From the sequence record MN850578.1: DNA of 64,000 nucleotides; one strand, written 5' to 3'. The translations under genes and the position numbers were made by a program. The notes beneath the pieces were generated by a model. It saw nothing but the letters and a program-made list of their open reading frames with translations. It ran no database searches and was not told the DNA's origin. This DNA is from Escherichia phage nomo. Below, piece after piece: positions 21,060 through 64,000 of this stretch (position 1 is its first letter; the number at the start of each line of letters is the position of its first letter).

Positions 21060-23500
21060 TTTCCTACCATAAACGGCCCTACCTGGCAAGTGGAATAATT
21101 GACGAGCCATCAATCCCACACACTGTACAAATATACATGGAAAATAACTATTGCATAATTTTTCATTGTGTGGTAGCAAGGCCATTTTTACACGTTTTTC
21201 CTTCCAAAATTGCACGTAATGCAGCATTTGCACAAAATTTAACCTGATGCATATCTTCAATAGCTTGTCAACAACTAAAAATCTTTATAAGTCATACACT
21301 TACATAACTACAAAAACGTTTTCTACGTGAAAAATCGAGTATAACTATAGCCGCCAGATCTCAGAATTTACGTACGCTCGCCATTCTATAGCCTGCTAAG
21401 CATTTATTCCAACCATAGAATAACTGAATAGTCAATACCTGCATAAAATAATTATTCGTGTAAACTGCATAACATAAATCGGCCCAGGTGTCAACATTTT
21501 TCGTAAACAGTCTGGAATTGTCACGTTAGGTTACCATAAGTAGAGAAATCTTTAGTCGTCTAATGTTTACTGTACGTTACTATATTAACTGAAATCATTA
21601 GATGACTAATAGAAAGATAAGAAATAATTAACAATACAATTATTTTATCTGTAACAATAAGGCAACTATGCAAACGAATGGCATGGCGCGACGGAGTCGC
21701 GACATAATATAAAAGCAGTAACCATCACCCCCGTGATAGTTTGTCTGCAAACTATTAATCAGATCATAGTTGCCTTGTATTTAGTTAATCATGACATAAC
21801 AAGCAAGGCAACTATAGATCTGCTAATAGTTGCCCTGCTTTTATATTATGTCATGCTAATTATAATCAGTGCGATTATTGTCATGTATAATTATTGTCAT
21901 GCAAACGAATGGCATGGCTGATTATCGGTGTGTAAACAGTCAATCATGTAAATGGTTAGCATGTGAACAATCAGGAATGTAAACAATCCAGTGTGTAAAC
22001 TAATAGGTGTGTAAAAGTGTCATGTTGTGTCAGTTAGGTCACATTATGTCAGACAAGTTTTTCTCCTCTTTGTCAAGTGCTGCATGAAAAATTTACAAGC
22101 TTGTATGGTAGCATTTTTGCGGCCCTGTTTACATTCAGGAGTGTATGTATAATCCTTGTTGTGTGGGCGTTTAGACGTCTGGACGGTCAGAAGTCTGCAG
22201 GTCAATATCTAATCTATTGGCTGCTAACTATATCCCCCACAAATAATAAGAAATATAATTGTTATGTGCGTAAACAGTAACCCATGTTATCAATCCCTGT
22301 ATGTATCGCCAGTTGTGCGCATAATGGGTATTATGTTAAATTGCCCGTAATGATAACTATTCTCACAATGATAGGTATTCTCATTCACCCCCACAAGATA
22401 GGTTGCAAATGTTGTGCCACTGTGTGAACGGCCTCACCTATTAATTTGCCTCACTGCCTCGATATTTGAGAATTGTTATAAGAATGAGAAGTATTCCCAT
22501 TCCGTCCGCCTGGCAGCACTCCAGTCGCTACGGCTCCTGACAGGGCAGCACTCCTGTAGGTCAGGTCAAAATCGTGGTAGAACTGGACCTGTTCGGATAT
22601 TTCTGGCTGACTCTTCAGGTCTGTGTGGGAAAAGCCAACCCCTCCGGCGGGGCAGGGGATATCTGCAGGAAAATTGCAGGTCAATTAAAAATTTACGTGG
22701 TGTATGAAGCGCTCTTCAGGCAAGGCATGTATTAGAGGATGAAACCCTCTTCAGGCAATGATATTTGTGGGTGGGATATTTGCTGGAAAGCCAGATATGA
22801 CGGGACTCCCGGCGGGGCAGGGGTAGTACAGACAGGGAAAATATGAGGATGTAATTGGGGAAATTGATCAGACAGGTAGAGTATGGAATATGTTACAGGT
22901 ATGTTAAATATGGAGGTTGAATATCTGTAGGATTTGTGTGTAAAATCAAAGACTTAAGGGGTGTTGTGGTATTTTCTATAAATAATTCAAGTTTAATAGG
23001 CAATATTTGTCTCTATCCGCTTTGTGTGGTAAACAGATTCAGATGAAATTGGTTTACAAGTGTATACATAATATACAAATTAAAGATACAAGAAACCCCC
23101 CTCCCCCCTCGGCTACCATTCACCTTTTCCTCTGACTGGTACTTAAACACTTATTCAGACTCTTCAGGTTATCACCCATATATCATATGGCAGTGACTGG
23201 TGTCCTCCGGCCCCTCTTTCGTCACCCGTCCGCTTCGCCATGCTAATGCCATAGCCAATGGTTCGGTTGTTCACCCTGTTCACTCAGGTGTATCTCCATA
23301 CCCCTTCAAACCGAAGAGAACAGAAAACCCGAATTACTCGGTAAAAGAAAAGAGAAGAACTTAATTTTATCAGGATAGGCAAGAATGTCAAGGCATGACT
23401 GCTCACTAAACAAGCAAACAGTCATGTGTGGAAGGTAAGTGATTGTGGTGGTGGGAAATTTAGTTGAAAGATGTGTTATAGGTGCGCTTCCAGCACTTTA
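21060..23500. other. 2.5-kb non-coding convergence region with several repeat families
   Basis: No convincing ORF; repeats gcaaacgaatggcatggc (x2), tgtgtaaac-like array 21928-22016, ctcttcagg...ccggcggggcagggg units 22606-22840. Confidence 0.55.
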
Positions 23501-23520
23501 GCCTGGCAGCTAATTGTGTG

Positions 23521-23736
23521 TCAGTCCAGCGGTTCATCCTCTACTTCACTGAAATCAATGTTCATGGTCTCTTCCCAACCATCGATCTCAGCACAAGAGT
23601 GGAGTTCTTTAGGGTTTACTCCCAAAGCCTCAGCAACAGAGTCTATATTTAACACCTCTGGTAGGTATGATTCATCGAATTCAAGGTAAATCAGGCCACG
23701 AGTGTTGTCAGCCCCACCAAATATTTCTATCTTCAT
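23521..23736 (-). CDS. hypothetical small acidic protein (71 aa), MKIEI-type N-terminus
   Basis: ORF with RBS; first gene of leftward block. Confidence 0.4.
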   Translation of the reverse strand: MKIEIFGGADNTRGLIYLEFDESYLPEVLNIDSVAEALGVNPKELHSCAEIDGWEETMNIDFSEVEDEPLD

Positions 23737-23857
23737 GAAATCTCCTCTGGAAATGAGAGTGTGAACAGGGTTTTATACGTTCCAATGCACAAGAATTATA
23801 CACGTTTGCCTCTTCAGGCCATGCTTTAGCATGAGGAACCTGTGTGGGCTCGGTGCT

Positions 23858-59889: not shown

Positions 59890-60240
59890 TCAGTAGATGT
59901 TTTGTTTAATCTCTATTCCAAACTTTTTAAACGAGTCAGCTGCAAGCATGAATTTACGAGCCGCTGATGGGTTAGAAGTATGCACGAAAATCTTCACGTT
60001 GTCAACTACAGGGGGCTTACCAAATACAAATTTTTCCTCCAACATAGATAGGCAATCGTACCCTTCGAACAACTCTCCAAGGTCGTTGTCCATGTGCCAC
60101 TCAGAAACGCGTCTGTAGAGCTTTCCCCTATCGTTAATAAAATCTATAAACTCGGAGGAATTCTTTAGCCAAATAGCGTCGGGGAGCCCATAATTTGACG
60201 GATCTCTCAAGTCATCCAGCCACACAATCAACTTCTTCAT
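59890..60240 (-). CDS. hypothetical protein (116 aa)
   Basis: ORF between Sir2-like and ligase-like genes; ATGA overlap. Confidence 0.4.
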   Translation of the reverse strand: MKKLIVWLDDLRDPSNYGLPDAIWLKNSSEFIDFINDRGKLYRRVSEWHMDNDLGELFEGYDCLSMLEEKFVFGKPPVVDNVKIFVHTSNPSAARKFMLAADSFKKFGIEIKQNIY

Positions 60241-61172
60241 TGCATATAGTTCTCGTTGTGGAAATAGTAATCAAGTATCTCACGGCGTTCCTGCTCCAGG
60301 AGGCAGTTCCACACATCTTCTGTGTAATTGTTACGAATGAAGTTTACCATGCCGTAAAACTCTTCGTCAACACGTTTAAAGATATCATCATCCCAAATCT
60401 TCCAAGCTTTACCCCTCATTACGGCCTTCCGTGCCAGGTAGTATGGAGACTTGATCTTCAGCTGCAGGTCATAAGGGTAGTAAGGCTTACGGATCATATA
60501 CCCTTCGCCCCTTGTTTCTGCGGCTAATTCTTTTGCATAGCTGAACGGGATTTCACGCACAGTGTGAGGACGTTTTGCACCAAGGTATTTGGCAATCCCA
60601 TCTAAAGCTGCTTCTGGTAGCATTATTCCAGAATCATTATATCTGCAACCTATCAAATATGCGCCATGGTCTTCTTGAACAATATGCGGATCTGAAGGGT
60701 GACAAATTTCAAACATGAATGTCATGTTTTCATTGCCCATAACCTTCTTGATAAGATCTAAATTACCACATTGCTCTTGGATGGTTTCCTTTGCAAGGTT
60801 ACAATATGGAGAATCAAGAGACCCGGTTGTTGAGAACAATAGGTCACCTTTATGAGATGATACCACACCAAGGAATCCGTTCTTTTTCTCTACCGCAGTC
60901 ACAAGCTTATTGTCAGGCAGGTTGGTGGAGTTTTCTCCCAAGTTAAACACTTTTGTGAAGGGCCATGCCACAACATTTCCTTCATTACCTACAACAATGC
61001 CTCGGCACTCCAGTAAACGAGGGGACAAATGCCATAAATTGTTGTAAAATACTTTTCTAGCATATTTATAGATCTTTAACCCGAGATCTGGGTAATACCT
61101 ACTGGTTACAAGACCTTTGTCAACCAGGTCGTCTGCATTAAAATACTTCATTATACGTTCCTCATTTGTCAT
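60237..61172 (-). CDS. RNA-ligase-like nucleotidyltransferase (putative RNA repair ligase)
   Basis: Motif I-like EKKNG, motif IV-like EGYMIR, motif V-like LKIK; distinct from the DNA ligase at 56483. Confidence 0.5.
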   Translation of the reverse strand: MTNEERIMKYFNADDLVDKGLVTSRYYPDLGLKIYKYARKVFYNNLWHLSPRLLECRGIVVGNEGNVVAWPFTKVFNLGENSTNLPDNKLVTAVEKKNGFLGVVSSHKGDLLFSTTGSLDSPYCNLAKETIQEQCGNLDLIKKVMGNENMTFMFEICHPSDPHIVQEDHGAYLIGCRYNDSGIMLPEAALDGIAKYLGAKRPHTVREIPFSYAKELAAETRGEGYMIRKPYYPYDLQLKIKSPYYLARKAVMRGKAWKIWDDDIFKRVDEEFYGMVNFIRNNYTEDVWNCLLEQERREILDYYFHNENYMQ

Positions 61173-61272
61173 TTTGTCAGTCTATCCTGCCACACAAATA
61201 ACCTAGTGTCAACACTTGAAATTAACAAAACAGTTAGGTATACTACCGTTGAAATTAAAACGGAGGGTCACT

Positions 61273-61683
61273 ATGTCTAAAATGCTATATATCGTGCGTG
61301 GTCTACCAGGGTCTGGCAAATCAACACTGGCGAATGCGCTATCTTTAGAGGGTCTGTATCCACATTTTGAGAACGACATGTTCTGGTATGACGATGACGG
61401 CAATTACAACTGGGATGCAAGTAAAGTAACACTCGCAGCAAAATGGTGCAAAGATAACGTAGAAGATATGATGCGTATGGGATACGACCGTATCGTGGTA
61501 AGTAATACGTTTACAAAAGAAAAACATGTGCAGGAATATGTTGACATGGCAATCAGTCATGGGTATAGTTATACCGTGATCGTGGTTGAAAACCGCCACG
61601 GTAATAAAAGCATTCATGATGTTCCAGACAAGGTTGTGGATCGTATGGAACGCCAGCTTAAAAACTGCATTAAACTTAAATGA
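61273..61683 (+). CDS. P-loop kinase (polynucleotide kinase-like)
   Basis: Walker A GLPGSGKST near N-terminus; RBS ggaggg upstream of ATG 61273; small kinase-only protein. Confidence 0.55.
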   Translation: MSKMLYIVRGLPGSGKSTLANALSLEGLYPHFENDMFWYDDDGNYNWDASKVTLAAKWCKDNVEDMMRMGYDRIVVSNTFTKEKHVQEYVDMAISHGYSYTVIVVENRHGNKSIHDVPDKVVDRMERQLKNCIKLK

Positions 61684-61690
61684 GGAATGT

Positions 61691-62245
61691 ATGAAATACT
61701 TTGTAACAAGCGACACACACTTTCTCCACCAGCGGGTCATGGAGTTTGATTCATGTCAAAAACACAGATCTCAGTATGATCACAATCTTGACAGTATGAA
61801 TGCTGGAATCATCGCCGAGTGGAACTCTGTTGTGTCACCTGCAGACACTGTGTTCCACTTGGGAGATATTGCGTGCACTAATGATAAGAATATCAACAAC
61901 TTACTTCCAGATATTCTAAATATGTTGAACGGACATATTATTCTTGTTCGTGGCAACCATGACACAAGGACGACTGTCAGAATTATGAAAGAGTTCGGTC
62001 ATGAGGTTGTAGATTATTACGAGCTTCGCCACAACAAGAATTTGATCTGTATGAGCCATTACCAGTTTGCAAAGTGGAACAGAAAGCCTCACGGATCAGT
62101 CCAACTGTTCGGTCATGCTCACGGAACCACACAACAGTTGTTTGGCAGGCAGCTTGATGTCGGTTGGGATGTGTGGGGGAGACTCTTACCATTAGAAGAG
62201 GCATACCGTATTGCAATGAGTTTTGATATTGACAGCAGGGAGTAA
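61691..62245 (+). CDS. calcineurin-like metallophosphoesterase
   Basis: SDTHF, HLGDIA, RGNHD motifs of metallophosphoesterases; RBS gagga upstream of ATG 61691. Confidence 0.6.
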   Translation: MKYFVTSDTHFLHQRVMEFDSCQKHRSQYDHNLDSMNAGIIAEWNSVVSPADTVFHLGDIACTNDKNINNLLPDILNMLNGHIILVRGNHDTRTTVRIMKEFGHEVVDYYELRHNKNLICMSHYQFAKWNRKPHGSVQLFGHAHGTTQQLFGRQLDVGWDVWGRLLPLEEAYRIAMSFDIDSRE

Positions 62246-62292
62246 TCCCTGCTATTTTAAAGAAAATTGCCACACAAGGAGAATCAGGAGAT

Positions 62293-62643
62293 ATGAAAGA
62301 TGGGGATAAGCTGCTATATCTTAAAGTCCCCCTTGAAATACTATCTATGTCAAAAGTTTTGAATGACACAACTGGGGAGGTTGTTGTTCTTGACTTGTAT
62401 GACAAGATCGTATACTGCTACCTGCACAACTGGTATAAGCTTGGAGGAAATTCACGCTTCACACCAAGCACAAGGAAAATTGCAGCAGATGTTGGGATAA
62501 AGAAAACAAAAGCAGCAGCGTGCGTTAAAACTTTAGAATGTGCAGGAGTGGTTGAAACATCCACACAAGGGAGAGGTAAAAGATGCACATTTTCCAAAGT
62601 TTTGCCACCAGAAGAAGTTATTCGGATGTCAACAACTGGTTAG
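62293..62643 (+). CDS. putative winged-helix DNA-binding protein (116 aa)
   Basis: RBS aaggag; segment STRKIAADVGIKKTKAAACVKTLECAGVV resembles an HTH. Confidence 0.4.
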   Translation: MKDGDKLLYLKVPLEILSMSKVLNDTTGEVVVLDLYDKIVYCYLHNWYKLGGNSRFTPSTRKIAADVGIKKTKAAACVKTLECAGVVETSTQGRGKRCTFSKVLPPEEVIRMSTTG

Positions 62644-62699
62644 ACCAGTAAAAACTTAAATATCTGTACTATAAGGATTCGTATGTTTTATGTTCGCCA

Positions 62700-62890
62700 T
62701 GGAACGGATACTATTAACTGTCCGTCACGCGGACACATCTGCCCGTAATACGGACACTAACTGTCCGTGATACGGACACATAAAGAATATAACTAAAATA
62801 ACTAAATAATAAAAAATAAAAGATCTAGTACTTATGGTACTAAGTACATATACTTAACTTATGTAGAATATACTAGATCCTAAGTACCAT
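62700..62890. repeat. palindrome cluster: GTCCGT/ACGGAC dyads (e.g. tgtccgtgatacggaca), AT-rich spacer, and long dyad around agatctagtact...agtactagatc
   Basis: Inverted repeats read directly; intergenic. Confidence 0.55.
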
Positions 62891-63282
62891 GTTTTAAATT
62901 TATTACTTACTATGGGCAGTGTCGGCCCTTCATTGGCACTCGCCTACGAGGGGCGAGATGCCGGGCCTCCTTGGTGCACACAATAACAGAAGTTCATACA
63001 TGCAGGTCTGTTAACATGTGTGGGAGCGAAGCGATAGCGCAGGCCAAAGGCCGAGCACTGATGTGGACCACCGACGAAAGCTTGCCAGCGCCGTAAGGAG
63101 TCGGTTGAGAGTCTCCCGCGCGAGCTTGGATGAAGTTTATGTGTGGAAACTGACAAGAAGGCCCCTAAATCGCTCCACAGCTATATAAACTATACCAGGT
63201 AATGCAATCGCACCAGTTTGATAGAAAAGCTCGTTACAAAGCGATACAGTGAGTTTTTCTATAACTTGAAGAGGAGGCAGCT

Positions 63283-63861
63283 ATGGGTTCACGCAAAGAT
63301 GACCGTGAAAAGATTGCAAAACGTTATCAGAATGAAGAACAGATGGAGAAAACTTTCAAGTGGAAGCCCGGTTTCCAGCGTAATCATTCTAACGCTCGTG
63401 ATCGTAAGCATCCGGATAAGTGGCTAACACCGCCAAATGATGGCATGCAGGTTGGGGATGAGAAGGAGATGTCGCCTGGAAAAGATGGCAACTACATTCG
63501 CACTAAGGACGCTGGTCCAAAGGATGACAGCTATCTTGTAGATAAGGTTCTTGATGGTATCAATGTAGATGTTGACACTGCACGAAACCTTTTTCTTGGG
63601 TGGTATCGCACAGGTTTTTTCGACATCAAGGCTATTCGTCGTGTTTGTGATATTAAAAAGTCTGTATATGATGACGACTCGTTACATCGCACCCTGAGAC
63701 AATATTCAGAAAGATATGGTCATCCGGTTATCACTCTTGACGATGTTAACGAAGTGATGTATCATGCAGAGGTTGTTGCAGGAAGATTTGGTGATGCATA
63801 TCTTGATATCCTTTCTGCAAAGGATGAGGTAATGTTAAATAAGATTTACTATGAACGCTGA
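63283..63861 (+). CDS. hypothetical protein (192 aa)
   Basis: Strong RBS agaggagg upstream of ATG. Confidence 0.5.
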   Translation: MGSRKDDREKIAKRYQNEEQMEKTFKWKPGFQRNHSNARDRKHPDKWLTPPNDGMQVGDEKEMSPGKDGNYIRTKDAGPKDDSYLVDKVLDGINVDVDTARNLFLGWYRTGFFDIKAIRRVCDIKKSVYDDDSLHRTLRQYSERYGHPVITLDDVNEVMYHAEVVAGRFGDAYLDILSAKDEVMLNKIYYER

Positions 63862-63871
63862 GGAGCGCTTA

Positions 63872-64000
63872 ATGAACAACCCGGTAGCAAAGAACTGTAA
63901 TAAGTTCAACAAGTCTGCAATTCACACTGACAGGAAAAAGAGCTGGTCTCCTGACATTGACGAGGAGCTTGAGAGTTACTTTGAAGACCTGGTCACTAAT
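63872..64000 (+). CDS. hypothetical protein, 5' portion (continues beyond window)
   Basis: RBS gaggag upstream of ATG 63872; frame open to window end. Confidence 0.35.
   Translation, partial: MNNPVAKNCNKFNKSAIHTDRKKSWSPDIDEELESYFEDLVTN

Follow-up and report, generated by a model that had tools for sequence, protein, structure and literature searches.

The window analysed here, a 64,000-nucleotide (nt) stretch of Escherichia phage nomo (sequence record MN850578.1), contains at ~62917-63209 of the plus strand a conserved structured element that is new and belongs to no known family. It ties the rV5-like phages to an apparently undescribed family of satellite-like plasmids. Comparison of its copies in phages and plasmids leaves us with little doubt that the element is conserved, non-coding and functional, and points to a molecule that very probably acts as a base-paired single strand, and probably as RNA rather than single-stranded DNA (ssDNA). 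For its role we favor, at a probability of about 0.35, an origin-proximal cis-acting RNA that would be used by the phage replication machinery and copied by the satellites.

The initial annotation of the window had marked 62900-63180 as more GC-rich than its surroundings and as lacking a credible open reading frame (ORF). The compositional contrast is real: GC content in this segment is 54-58%, compared with a mean of 43% for the window and 33-39% directly upstream. Windows of 200 nt reach 0.555 at 62900-63099 and 0.535 at 63000-63199, windows of 150 nt peak at 0.58 against a 64-kb mean of 0.4285 (standard deviation 0.044), and the element is the longest among roughly nine GC islands of at least 0.56 in the 64 kb. 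The limits first drawn enclose a real segment but stop too early on the right, as the conserved element extends to ~63209: homology with a divergent phage lineage (L004 from IMG/VR and L019 from Logan, two of the 18 relatives fetched for comparison) and with plasmid L026 begins at 62917-62921, and plasmid similarity ends at ~63209. The window itself is a Vequintavirus (rV5-like) genome and corresponds to 70428-134427 of MZ501054.1; the region is identical (100%) in Escherichia phages nimi and CarlMeissner and shares 88-100% identity with ~118 Vequintavirus records. All ~118 records keep the element, with a conservation at least that of the neighboring genes. Against the divergent lineage, block A (62921-70) is 96% and the core (63017-63125) 90-91% identical, compared with 83% for the gene at 63283 and 88-92% for the upstream enzymes, while 62971-63016, 63126-63199 and everything to the left of 62917 are unalignable to L004 and L019. 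Among 50,697 phage records and, by blastn, 72,556 plasmids (PLSDB) and 5,426 complete E. coli genomes, the element was found only in Vequintavirus and in ~13-kb E. coli plasmids, with one copy per replicon that always lies on the strand of the downstream genes and no extra copies elsewhere in the phage genome.

The pattern of substitution within the element is not that of a gene. The ORFs that overlap the segment are mechanical only (31-70 amino acids, aa), in line with the initial annotation, and carry no third-position excess of substitutions among the relatives. Substitutions in a 56-aa ORF are distributed 22/34/30 over the three codon positions, with 13 synonymous and 52 non-synonymous changes, whereas the control gene at 63283 has 61/32/126, with 94 synonymous and 89 non-synonymous changes. 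Because the segment has no codon-position bias, unlike its strongly biased neighbor, we regard it as non-coding; on these comparisons it is under purifying selection.

The element can be divided into the following parts.

62917-63209, plus strand: whole conserved non-coding element, made up of hairpin A, variable segment V1, the junction core and a 3' tail
62924-62967, plus strand: hairpin A of 16 bp; the A at 62958 is bulged, the internal loop has 6 nt and the apical loop is ACGAG
62971-63016, plus strand: variable segment V1, with an imperfect hairpin at 62977-63020 (inverted repeat I4)
63018-63026, plus strand: 5' strand of P1, GUGUGGGAG, candidate closing helix of the core
63027-63058, plus strand: V2 branch, with GCG/CGC and GGCC-AAA-GGCC hairpins; plasmids have other hairpins here
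63059-63069, plus strand: junction J1, with the motif AUGUGGA, which phages and plasmids of both core types have kept
63070-63105, plus strand: helix Pc, ACCGAC/GUCGGU, capped by the 24-nt loop GAAAGCUUGCCAGCGCCGUAAGGA (63076-63099)
63113-63121, plus strand: 3' strand of P1, CUCCCGCGC, which pairs with 63018-63026
63122-63209, plus strand: 3' tail, less conserved, with AUGUGUGG (63138-63145) and CCCCUAAAU (63162-63170) common to plasmids

The strongest evidence for a folded molecule comes from helix Pc and hairpin A. In plasmids with a type-1 core, Pc reads GCUGCC/GGCAGC, so that three of its six pairs are altered on both sides relative to the phage, and three phages (L004, L010 and L019) have G.U intermediates; all cells of the comparison are paired (96/96), as opposed to 0-52% in slid controls. 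The 24-nt loop that Pc carries is the same in phages and type-1 plasmids except for a T/G position at 63094. In type-2 plasmids (L030, L039-41 and L043-45) the position of Pc is occupied by a stem GUCCGGAU/AUCCGGAC with a different loop of 18 nt, and most of the flanking sequence, that is, the motifs GUGUGGG, AAUGUGGA and (C/U)CCGCGC, has been retained, although the 3' strand varies somewhat. Hairpin A, the long hairpin with an outer GGCCC/GGGCC stem that had been noticed from the first, is present exactly as described: GGCCC (62924-62928) pairs with GGGCC (62963-62967), and GGCA-CTCGCCT (62935-62945) with GGGCGAG-A-TGCC (62951-62962). It folds at -28.1 kcal/mol (z = -3.1; 0 of 200 shuffles as stable), its minimum free energy (MFE) structure equals its centroid, and it is 96-98% identical in divergent phages. 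Across the alignment 99% of its cells are paired, and phage substitutions are confined to its loops, with one exception in L012. In plasmid L026 the pairs G36-C61 and G42-C54 have both become U-A, with the bulged A and a G.U pair retained.

Thus five base pairs in two helices are compensated between phage and plasmid copies; the initial annotation had proposed a comparison of this kind, with related phages, as a check on its structured-RNA candidate. Two helices kept through compensatory substitutions, in a non-coding segment under purifying selection, are what is generally expected of a conserved structured RNA, and the candidate is supported on this comparative footing. In the core, of ~105 nt, P1 would close a junction from which the variable V2 branch and helix Pc extend. 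P1 is present in both the MFE and the centroid structure of the window core, is independently predicted in the core of type-2 plasmid L030, and could form with 7-10 bp in every variant of a pairing table; in L004, C63115T in its 3' strand is accompanied by a GAA insertion in its 5' strand that restores pairing. In these models P1 is likely the closing helix. The further stem GGCCAAAGGCC of the initial annotation is present at 63042-63052. V1 is unalignable to L004 and L019 and is represented in plasmids by different hairpin modules, and its hairpin is dispensable, because the Murica-type phages (L005-L008) have lost 18 nt at 62980-62997 and with them one of its arms.

Stems that vary under a conserved loop favor a folded single strand, since a palindrome bound by protein as a duplex would show the opposite pattern. 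Three observations in turn favor RNA of the plus strand. Two G.U pairs occur in P1 and others in hairpin A and Pc, all of which become A.C mismatches on the opposite strand. In three versions of the core the plus strand folds more stably than the minus strand (-40.5 vs -33.3, -46.0 vs -39.9 and -50.6 vs -45.1 kcal/mol), an advantage of 5-7 kcal/mol. Some of the hairpin modules inserted in plasmids carry CUUCGG, a loop of the UUCG-tetraloop type, on the strand of the element; each extra plasmid module is preceded by a (U)GUGUGGG motif.

Known RNA families and signals do not account for the element. Covariance-model searches, proposed with the initial annotation, returned no match at gathering thresholds for any of the 4227 models of Rfam 15 in the whole window; under permissive settings the best overlap was rli43, at 21.9 bits against a threshold of 100 and mostly over the AT-rich part. 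ARAGORN called no tRNA or tmRNA gene in the window. A terminator or attenuator ahead of the ORF at 63283 had also been suggested, and this part of the initial annotation did not survive: no intrinsic terminator of the stem-plus-U-tract type was found on either strand at 62200-64000, with no T runs after hairpin A or Pc; the core ends ~160 nt before the ORF, with a poorly conserved stretch between; and the same element precedes unrelated genes in the plasmids. A hammerhead-like CUGAUG...GAAA was rejected, since the essential G is an A in most phages, the motif is missing from the plasmids and Rfam is negative. The segment GAGTCTCCCGCGCGAGCTTGGATGAAGTT (63109-63137) matches the E. coli type I-E CRISPR repeat at 20 of 29 positions and gives the best ungapped score against it in the 64 kb on both strands; an RNA anti-CRISPR or repeat mimic was discarded, as the CCCCGC/GCGGGG stem is lost and the plasmid copies differ there. 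A literature search found no Vequintavirus transcriptome study.

The plasmids that share the element are circular, non-mobilizable and 13.2-13.7 kb in size, apart from a 39.6-kb record in which three units of such a plasmid are arranged in tandem. Those examined (L026-L031 and L039-L049, 13.2-14.3 kb) include NZ_CP020521.1, NZ_CP035869.1 and CP134895.1. Seven of the 5,426 complete E. coli genomes carry an element plasmid, and the element is never chromosomal; in public assemblies, the plasmid capsid protein is found in hundreds of near-identical copies on contigs of ~13-14 kb. The plasmids encode a major capsid protein, Dit-like, tail-completion and tape-measure proteins, an HTH_36/O-like Rep and small helix-turn-helix (HTH) proteins, and no terminase or portal gene was called in them. 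Three of these proteins have homologues in the complete CarlMeissner genome: the 'tail tube initiator' for the Dit-like protein (50% identity, E 1.6e-61), bas48_0011 for the tail-completion protein (45%, E 6e-34) and the phage tape measure for that of the plasmids (25%, E 1e-14). Virion genes related to those of a helper, an incomplete set of virion, packaging and lysis genes and a replication system of their own are the gene content of a satellite, and by this content the plasmids look like satellites of rV5-like phages. A literature search found no report of such plasmids or of their mobilization by a helper. Scans of IMG/VR, JGI metagenomes and GTDB genomes with exact DNA patterns gave only close Vequintavirus relatives or chance coding matches, and more distant family members may exist because these large collections were scanned by exact pattern.

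The non-coding DNA shared by phage and plasmids comprises the element, a 24-nt motif, a 35-nt match and a 29-nt match; a further match of 60 nt (77%) is coding and lies inside the plasmid Rep gene. The 24-nt motif, GATATTTGAGAATTGTTATAAGAA, has a single copy in the window, at 22461-22484. All 13-kb plasmids examined have it too (23/24), within their gene-free region and pointing the opposite way to the element, and it may serve both replicons as a promoter or regulatory site. The plasmid element lies within this gene-free region, which is 2.2-2.9 kb long, with an iteron array of the CGGTAAATATTTCCG type on one side and the promoters of the rep-containing operon on the other. A second repeat array, of the TAAATACCC / TAAATAGGGG type, occupies the far end of the region (L026 1065-1190 and equivalents) and may be a partition or second iteron site.

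In the phage the element occupies a 640-nt gap in which it is likewise preceded by iterons, and all genes around the gap are rightward. The features that flank it are listed below.

62293-62643, plus strand: gene of a 116-aa winged-helix DNA-binding protein, initiator-like, annotated as 'transcriptional regulator' or 'replication initiation protein'
62715-62781, no strand assigned: three iterons with 21-22 bp spacing, each with the dyad TGTCCG-N5-CGGACA (repeat family D1, inverted repeats I2/I3)
62782-62913, no strand assigned: AT-rich spacer, GC ~0.3, with nested inverted repeats I1, I7, I8 and I10
63221-63262, plus strand: hairpin ATAGAAAAGCTC / GAGTTTTTCTAT in the 5' untranslated region (UTR) of the 192-aa gene (inverted repeat I5)
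63283-63861, plus strand: 192-aa protein gene, phrog_12226 (unknown function), kept with the element in both phage lineages

The 116-aa protein matches phrog_12838 ('replication initiation protein') at E 5e-80 and three other initiator PHROGs weakly, as well as the Pfam families HTH_36 (E 2e-5), which is also found in plasmid Rep proteins, and DUF6945 (E 4e-6), both just under the curated cut-offs. The iterons number four in most relatives in the alignment, and the AT-rich spacer is nearly invariant in the main clade and unalignable in L004 and L019. Helically spaced direct repeats, an AT-rich region and an initiator gene together have the layout of an iteron origin, and the same layout with different repeats is present in L004, L019 and the plasmids. 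It resembles a lambda-type origin in its three to four dyad-symmetric repeats with two-turn spacing, its AT-rich stretch and its initiator-like winged-helix gene, but differs in that the 116-aa protein has nothing beyond its DNA-binding domain, the gene does not contain the iterons and a conserved folded element comes after the AT-rich stretch. In L004 (1819-2400) and L019 (2807-3450) the 116-aa protein and its repeats (62293-62781 of the window) have been jointly swapped for an unrelated 143-aa winged-helix protein with repeats of the TGCATCAGAT type, while the GC-rich element, the 5' UTR and the 192-aa gene are kept. This swap identifies the DNA-binding protein and its own sites as an exchangeable module and the element as independent of it. 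At the syntenic place in two phages of other Vequintavirinae genera, Salmonella phage PVP-SE1 and a Klebsiella Mydovirus, the whole module is absent.

The element has the same place in every replicon, with an iteron array on one side and the first co-directional gene on the other; the initiator-type proteins to which these arrays belong are of three unrelated kinds. This place next to the iterons suggests an origin-coupled role, and the partner of the element is probably supplied by the phage rather than the host, because the sequence is found in no other E. coli element. On the reading that we prefer, transcription out of the iteron and AT-rich region would yield the folded element RNA, which would act in cis at the adjoining putative origin, whether by giving rise to a primer, by forming an R-loop or by serving as a platform for loading. 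Phage replication proteins, and not the iteron-binding initiator, would read its conserved single-stranded portions (J1, the loop of Pc and the two strands of P1), and the satellite copies would give access to the replisome of an infecting rV5-like helper. Such coupling to replication would explain both why the same element lies beside three unrelated sets of initiators and iterons and why the satellites keep a copy beside iterons of their own. RNA-primed or transcription-activated origins are represented by ColE1 RNA II, T4 oriF/oriG and the T7 origin transcripts. The proposed RNA would be like these in being a structured, G-rich cis RNA beside an origin and independent of the initiator's sequence specificity, and unlike them in lying by an iteron-type module with no antisense partner, RNase H site or promoter identified; there is no sequence or Rfam similarity.

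Several observations weigh against this reading, some of them against the structure and others against the function. P1 is otherwise an invariant motif and so offers no covariation, and RNAalifold on the phage and both plasmid types allows J1 to pair with the 3' strand of P1 instead. No more than two or three independent contrasts, drawn among phage, plasmid type 1 and plasmid type 2, underlie the covariation. The core folds no better than its shuffles (z = -0.95), and the whole 281 nt do not fold significantly better (z = -1.8 on the plus and -1.2 on the minus strand), so that support for the structure comes from sequence comparison and not from thermodynamics. RNAalifold returned no common structure from MAFFT alignments of the three types, because MAFFT cannot align non-homologous stems, and no usable covariation from a phage-only alignment, in which the sequences are too similar. 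As to transcription, no sigma-70-like promoter is predicted 5' of the element in the phage or in one plasmid, and the plasmid promoter scan placed promoters only 3' of the element, between element and operon; two terminator-like hairpins on the minus strand just upstream of the plasmid copies would allow antisense transcription. The repeats of the iteron region could be operators instead of an origin. The rV5 genome paper could not define an origin by analysis of skew, and its skew switches follow the changes in transcription direction. Finally, a satellite without a terminase needs a packaging signal of the helper type, and the element is among the few non-coding sequences that the two replicons share.

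Unlikely, in our estimate, is a regulatory RNA between helper and satellite. In this view the RNA would act in trans or as a decoy and bind a phage protein such as the 192-aa protein, and the satellite copy would titrate or sense that protein, so that the satellite would time its own induction or interfere with the helper. Such a role would suit the confinement of the element to the helper-satellite pair, the single conserved block that it forms with the 192-aa gene beside an exchangeable upstream module, and the Pc loop, whose 24 nt are invariant in phages and type-1 plasmids and whose different type-2 version is what specificity variants would look like. However, complementarity of the loop to antisense targets in the window and the plasmids is limited to chance 9-11-mers, no RNA-binding domain is recognizable in the 192-aa protein, and the constant place beside iterons would be left unexplained. 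The 192-aa protein is 81-82% identical in L004 and L019, and the block 63200-63282 in front of its gene is 89-94% identical even in divergent relatives. The protein has no Pfam match and no sequence match in the PDB; its AlphaFold2 model is poor (pLDDT 54) and gives no fold match reaching E < 0.9, although by our own reading the order of predicted secondary structures in the C-terminal domain is winged-helix-like. A homologue with 50% identity was found in another context without the element. Other phage RNAs that work through protein contacts, HK022 put RNA and phi29 pRNA, are likewise stem-loop RNAs of ~70-170 nt whose conserved parts contact a protein machine (polymerase or packaging motor), but neither matches the element in sequence or architecture: put lies directly after a promoter, and pRNA comes from protein-primed phages with a different packaging system.

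We give a somewhat lower rank to a packaging signal, a pac or terminase-recognition region copied by the plasmids for entry into helper capsids, with the 192-aa protein as a possible small terminase. The absence of called terminase and portal genes from plasmids with capsid and tail genes creates the need for such a signal, and the element is the sole shared non-coding sequence apart from the three short matches. No small terminase is annotated beside the large terminase of the phage, the 192-aa gene is always linked to the element, and a GTGTGG-type motif recurs in the manner of the repeated boxes of some pac sites. There is also precedent for a non-coding segment common to a phage and an element without packaging genes, in the P4 cos derived from P2 and in pac sites of the PICI type. 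The pac and cos sites known so far are recognized in duplex form, though, whereas this element evolves as a folded single strand, with stems that co-vary, an invariant loop and a need for G.U pairs; and in contrast to P4 and PICI, a virulent phage is the helper here and a free plasmid the satellite-like element. The large terminase gene lies several kb downstream of the element, with tRNA and lysis genes between, and the poor model of the 192-aa protein gives no terminase fold match.

A signal in ssDNA, in which the displaced plus strand would serve as a primosome-assembly or priming (ssi-type) site by the origin, is improbable, even though the arguments from context apply to it as they do to the origin-proximal RNA and the compensatory changes would suit ssDNA hairpins equally. 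Portability among replicons with different initiators is typical of plasmid ssi signals, and the element resembles the G4- and phiX-type signals in being portable, hairpin-rich, 100-200 nt long, origin-proximal and strand-specific, with various initiators. These signals act as DNA, however, and P1 relies on two G.T wobbles that are weak in DNA, while wobble pairs and UUCG-type loops are on the side of RNA; nor is there any similarity to other PLSDB plasmids, including the classical ssi-bearing replicons.

More doubtful again is a leader RNA of the rightward operon, a cis-acting 5' element that would work on host RNA polymerase or RNases through processive antitermination of the HK022 put kind or through transcript processing and stability. 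The element is always upstream of, and on the same strand as, a long series of co-directional genes, and in some plasmids the core is preceded by boxA-like boxes (CGCTCTTT). But a host partner predicts a wider spread in E. coli than one phage genus and one plasmid family, the good plasmid promoters lie 3' of the element, between it and the operon, and no terminator was detected downstream in the phage.

It is highly improbable that the element encodes small proteins of 31 aa (62919-63014) and 56 aa (63018-63188), although both ORFs are carried as hypothetical proteins in the BASEL records (MZ501054 and related) and the lengths of three indels (18, 3 and 3 nt) are by chance divisible by three, since their codon-position and synonymous counts are unlike those of the control gene, the frame stops elsewhere in L004 and L019, L008 has a 1-nt deletion in the upstream ORF, no family match was found and the frame is not preserved in plasmid copies. 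On this evidence the small ORFs that roughly a dozen deposited genomes carry as annotations are not genes.

Three further observations concern the surroundings of the element and the related records. A cluster of RNA ligase 1, polynucleotide kinase and phosphoesterase genes lies at 60237-62245, just 5' of the origin-like module, and six or seven tRNA genes are clustered ~1.6 kb 3' of the 192-aa gene, beyond position 64000 (L001 5510-6321); together these are an RNA-repair and tRNA neighborhood. A second stretch of ~2.5 kb without an annotated gene is found between convergent gene blocks at 21370-23853 (91797-94280 of MZ501054.1). It contains the repeats CCGGCGGGGCAGGGG (two copies), AATGATA..TATTCTCA (three copies) and ATGAA.C.CTCTTCAGGCAA (two copies), a GC island at 22493-22681 and TCTGTGTGGG at 22619, and could be a further non-coding RNA locus or the real origin. 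Lastly, 18 GenBank records named 'Campylobacter phage' (MG0656xx) are rV5-like coliphage genomes, 96-99% identical to the window; MG065655.1, the single one opened, carries an UNVERIFIED mark, and by sequence the Campylobacter host label of these records is probably wrong.

Phages of the rV5 type are widely used against pathogenic E. coli, and the element offers a concrete, mutable target of 300 nt beside their origin-like module. It is the one substantial non-coding feature common to these phages and to ~13-kb plasmids with rV5-type tail proteins. Known helper-satellite systems use duplex cos or pac sites or protein cross-talk; if the link described here is functional, it would be an interface at the level of RNA or of a single strand between a virulent helper and satellites that are free plasmids. 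As a tentative extension, one we hold possible rather than probable, the new structured-RNA class may be the handle by which plasmid satellites exploit virulent rV5-like coliphages: a mimic in two types that captures a helper protein, with the helper itself needing the RNA at its own origin or packaging module.

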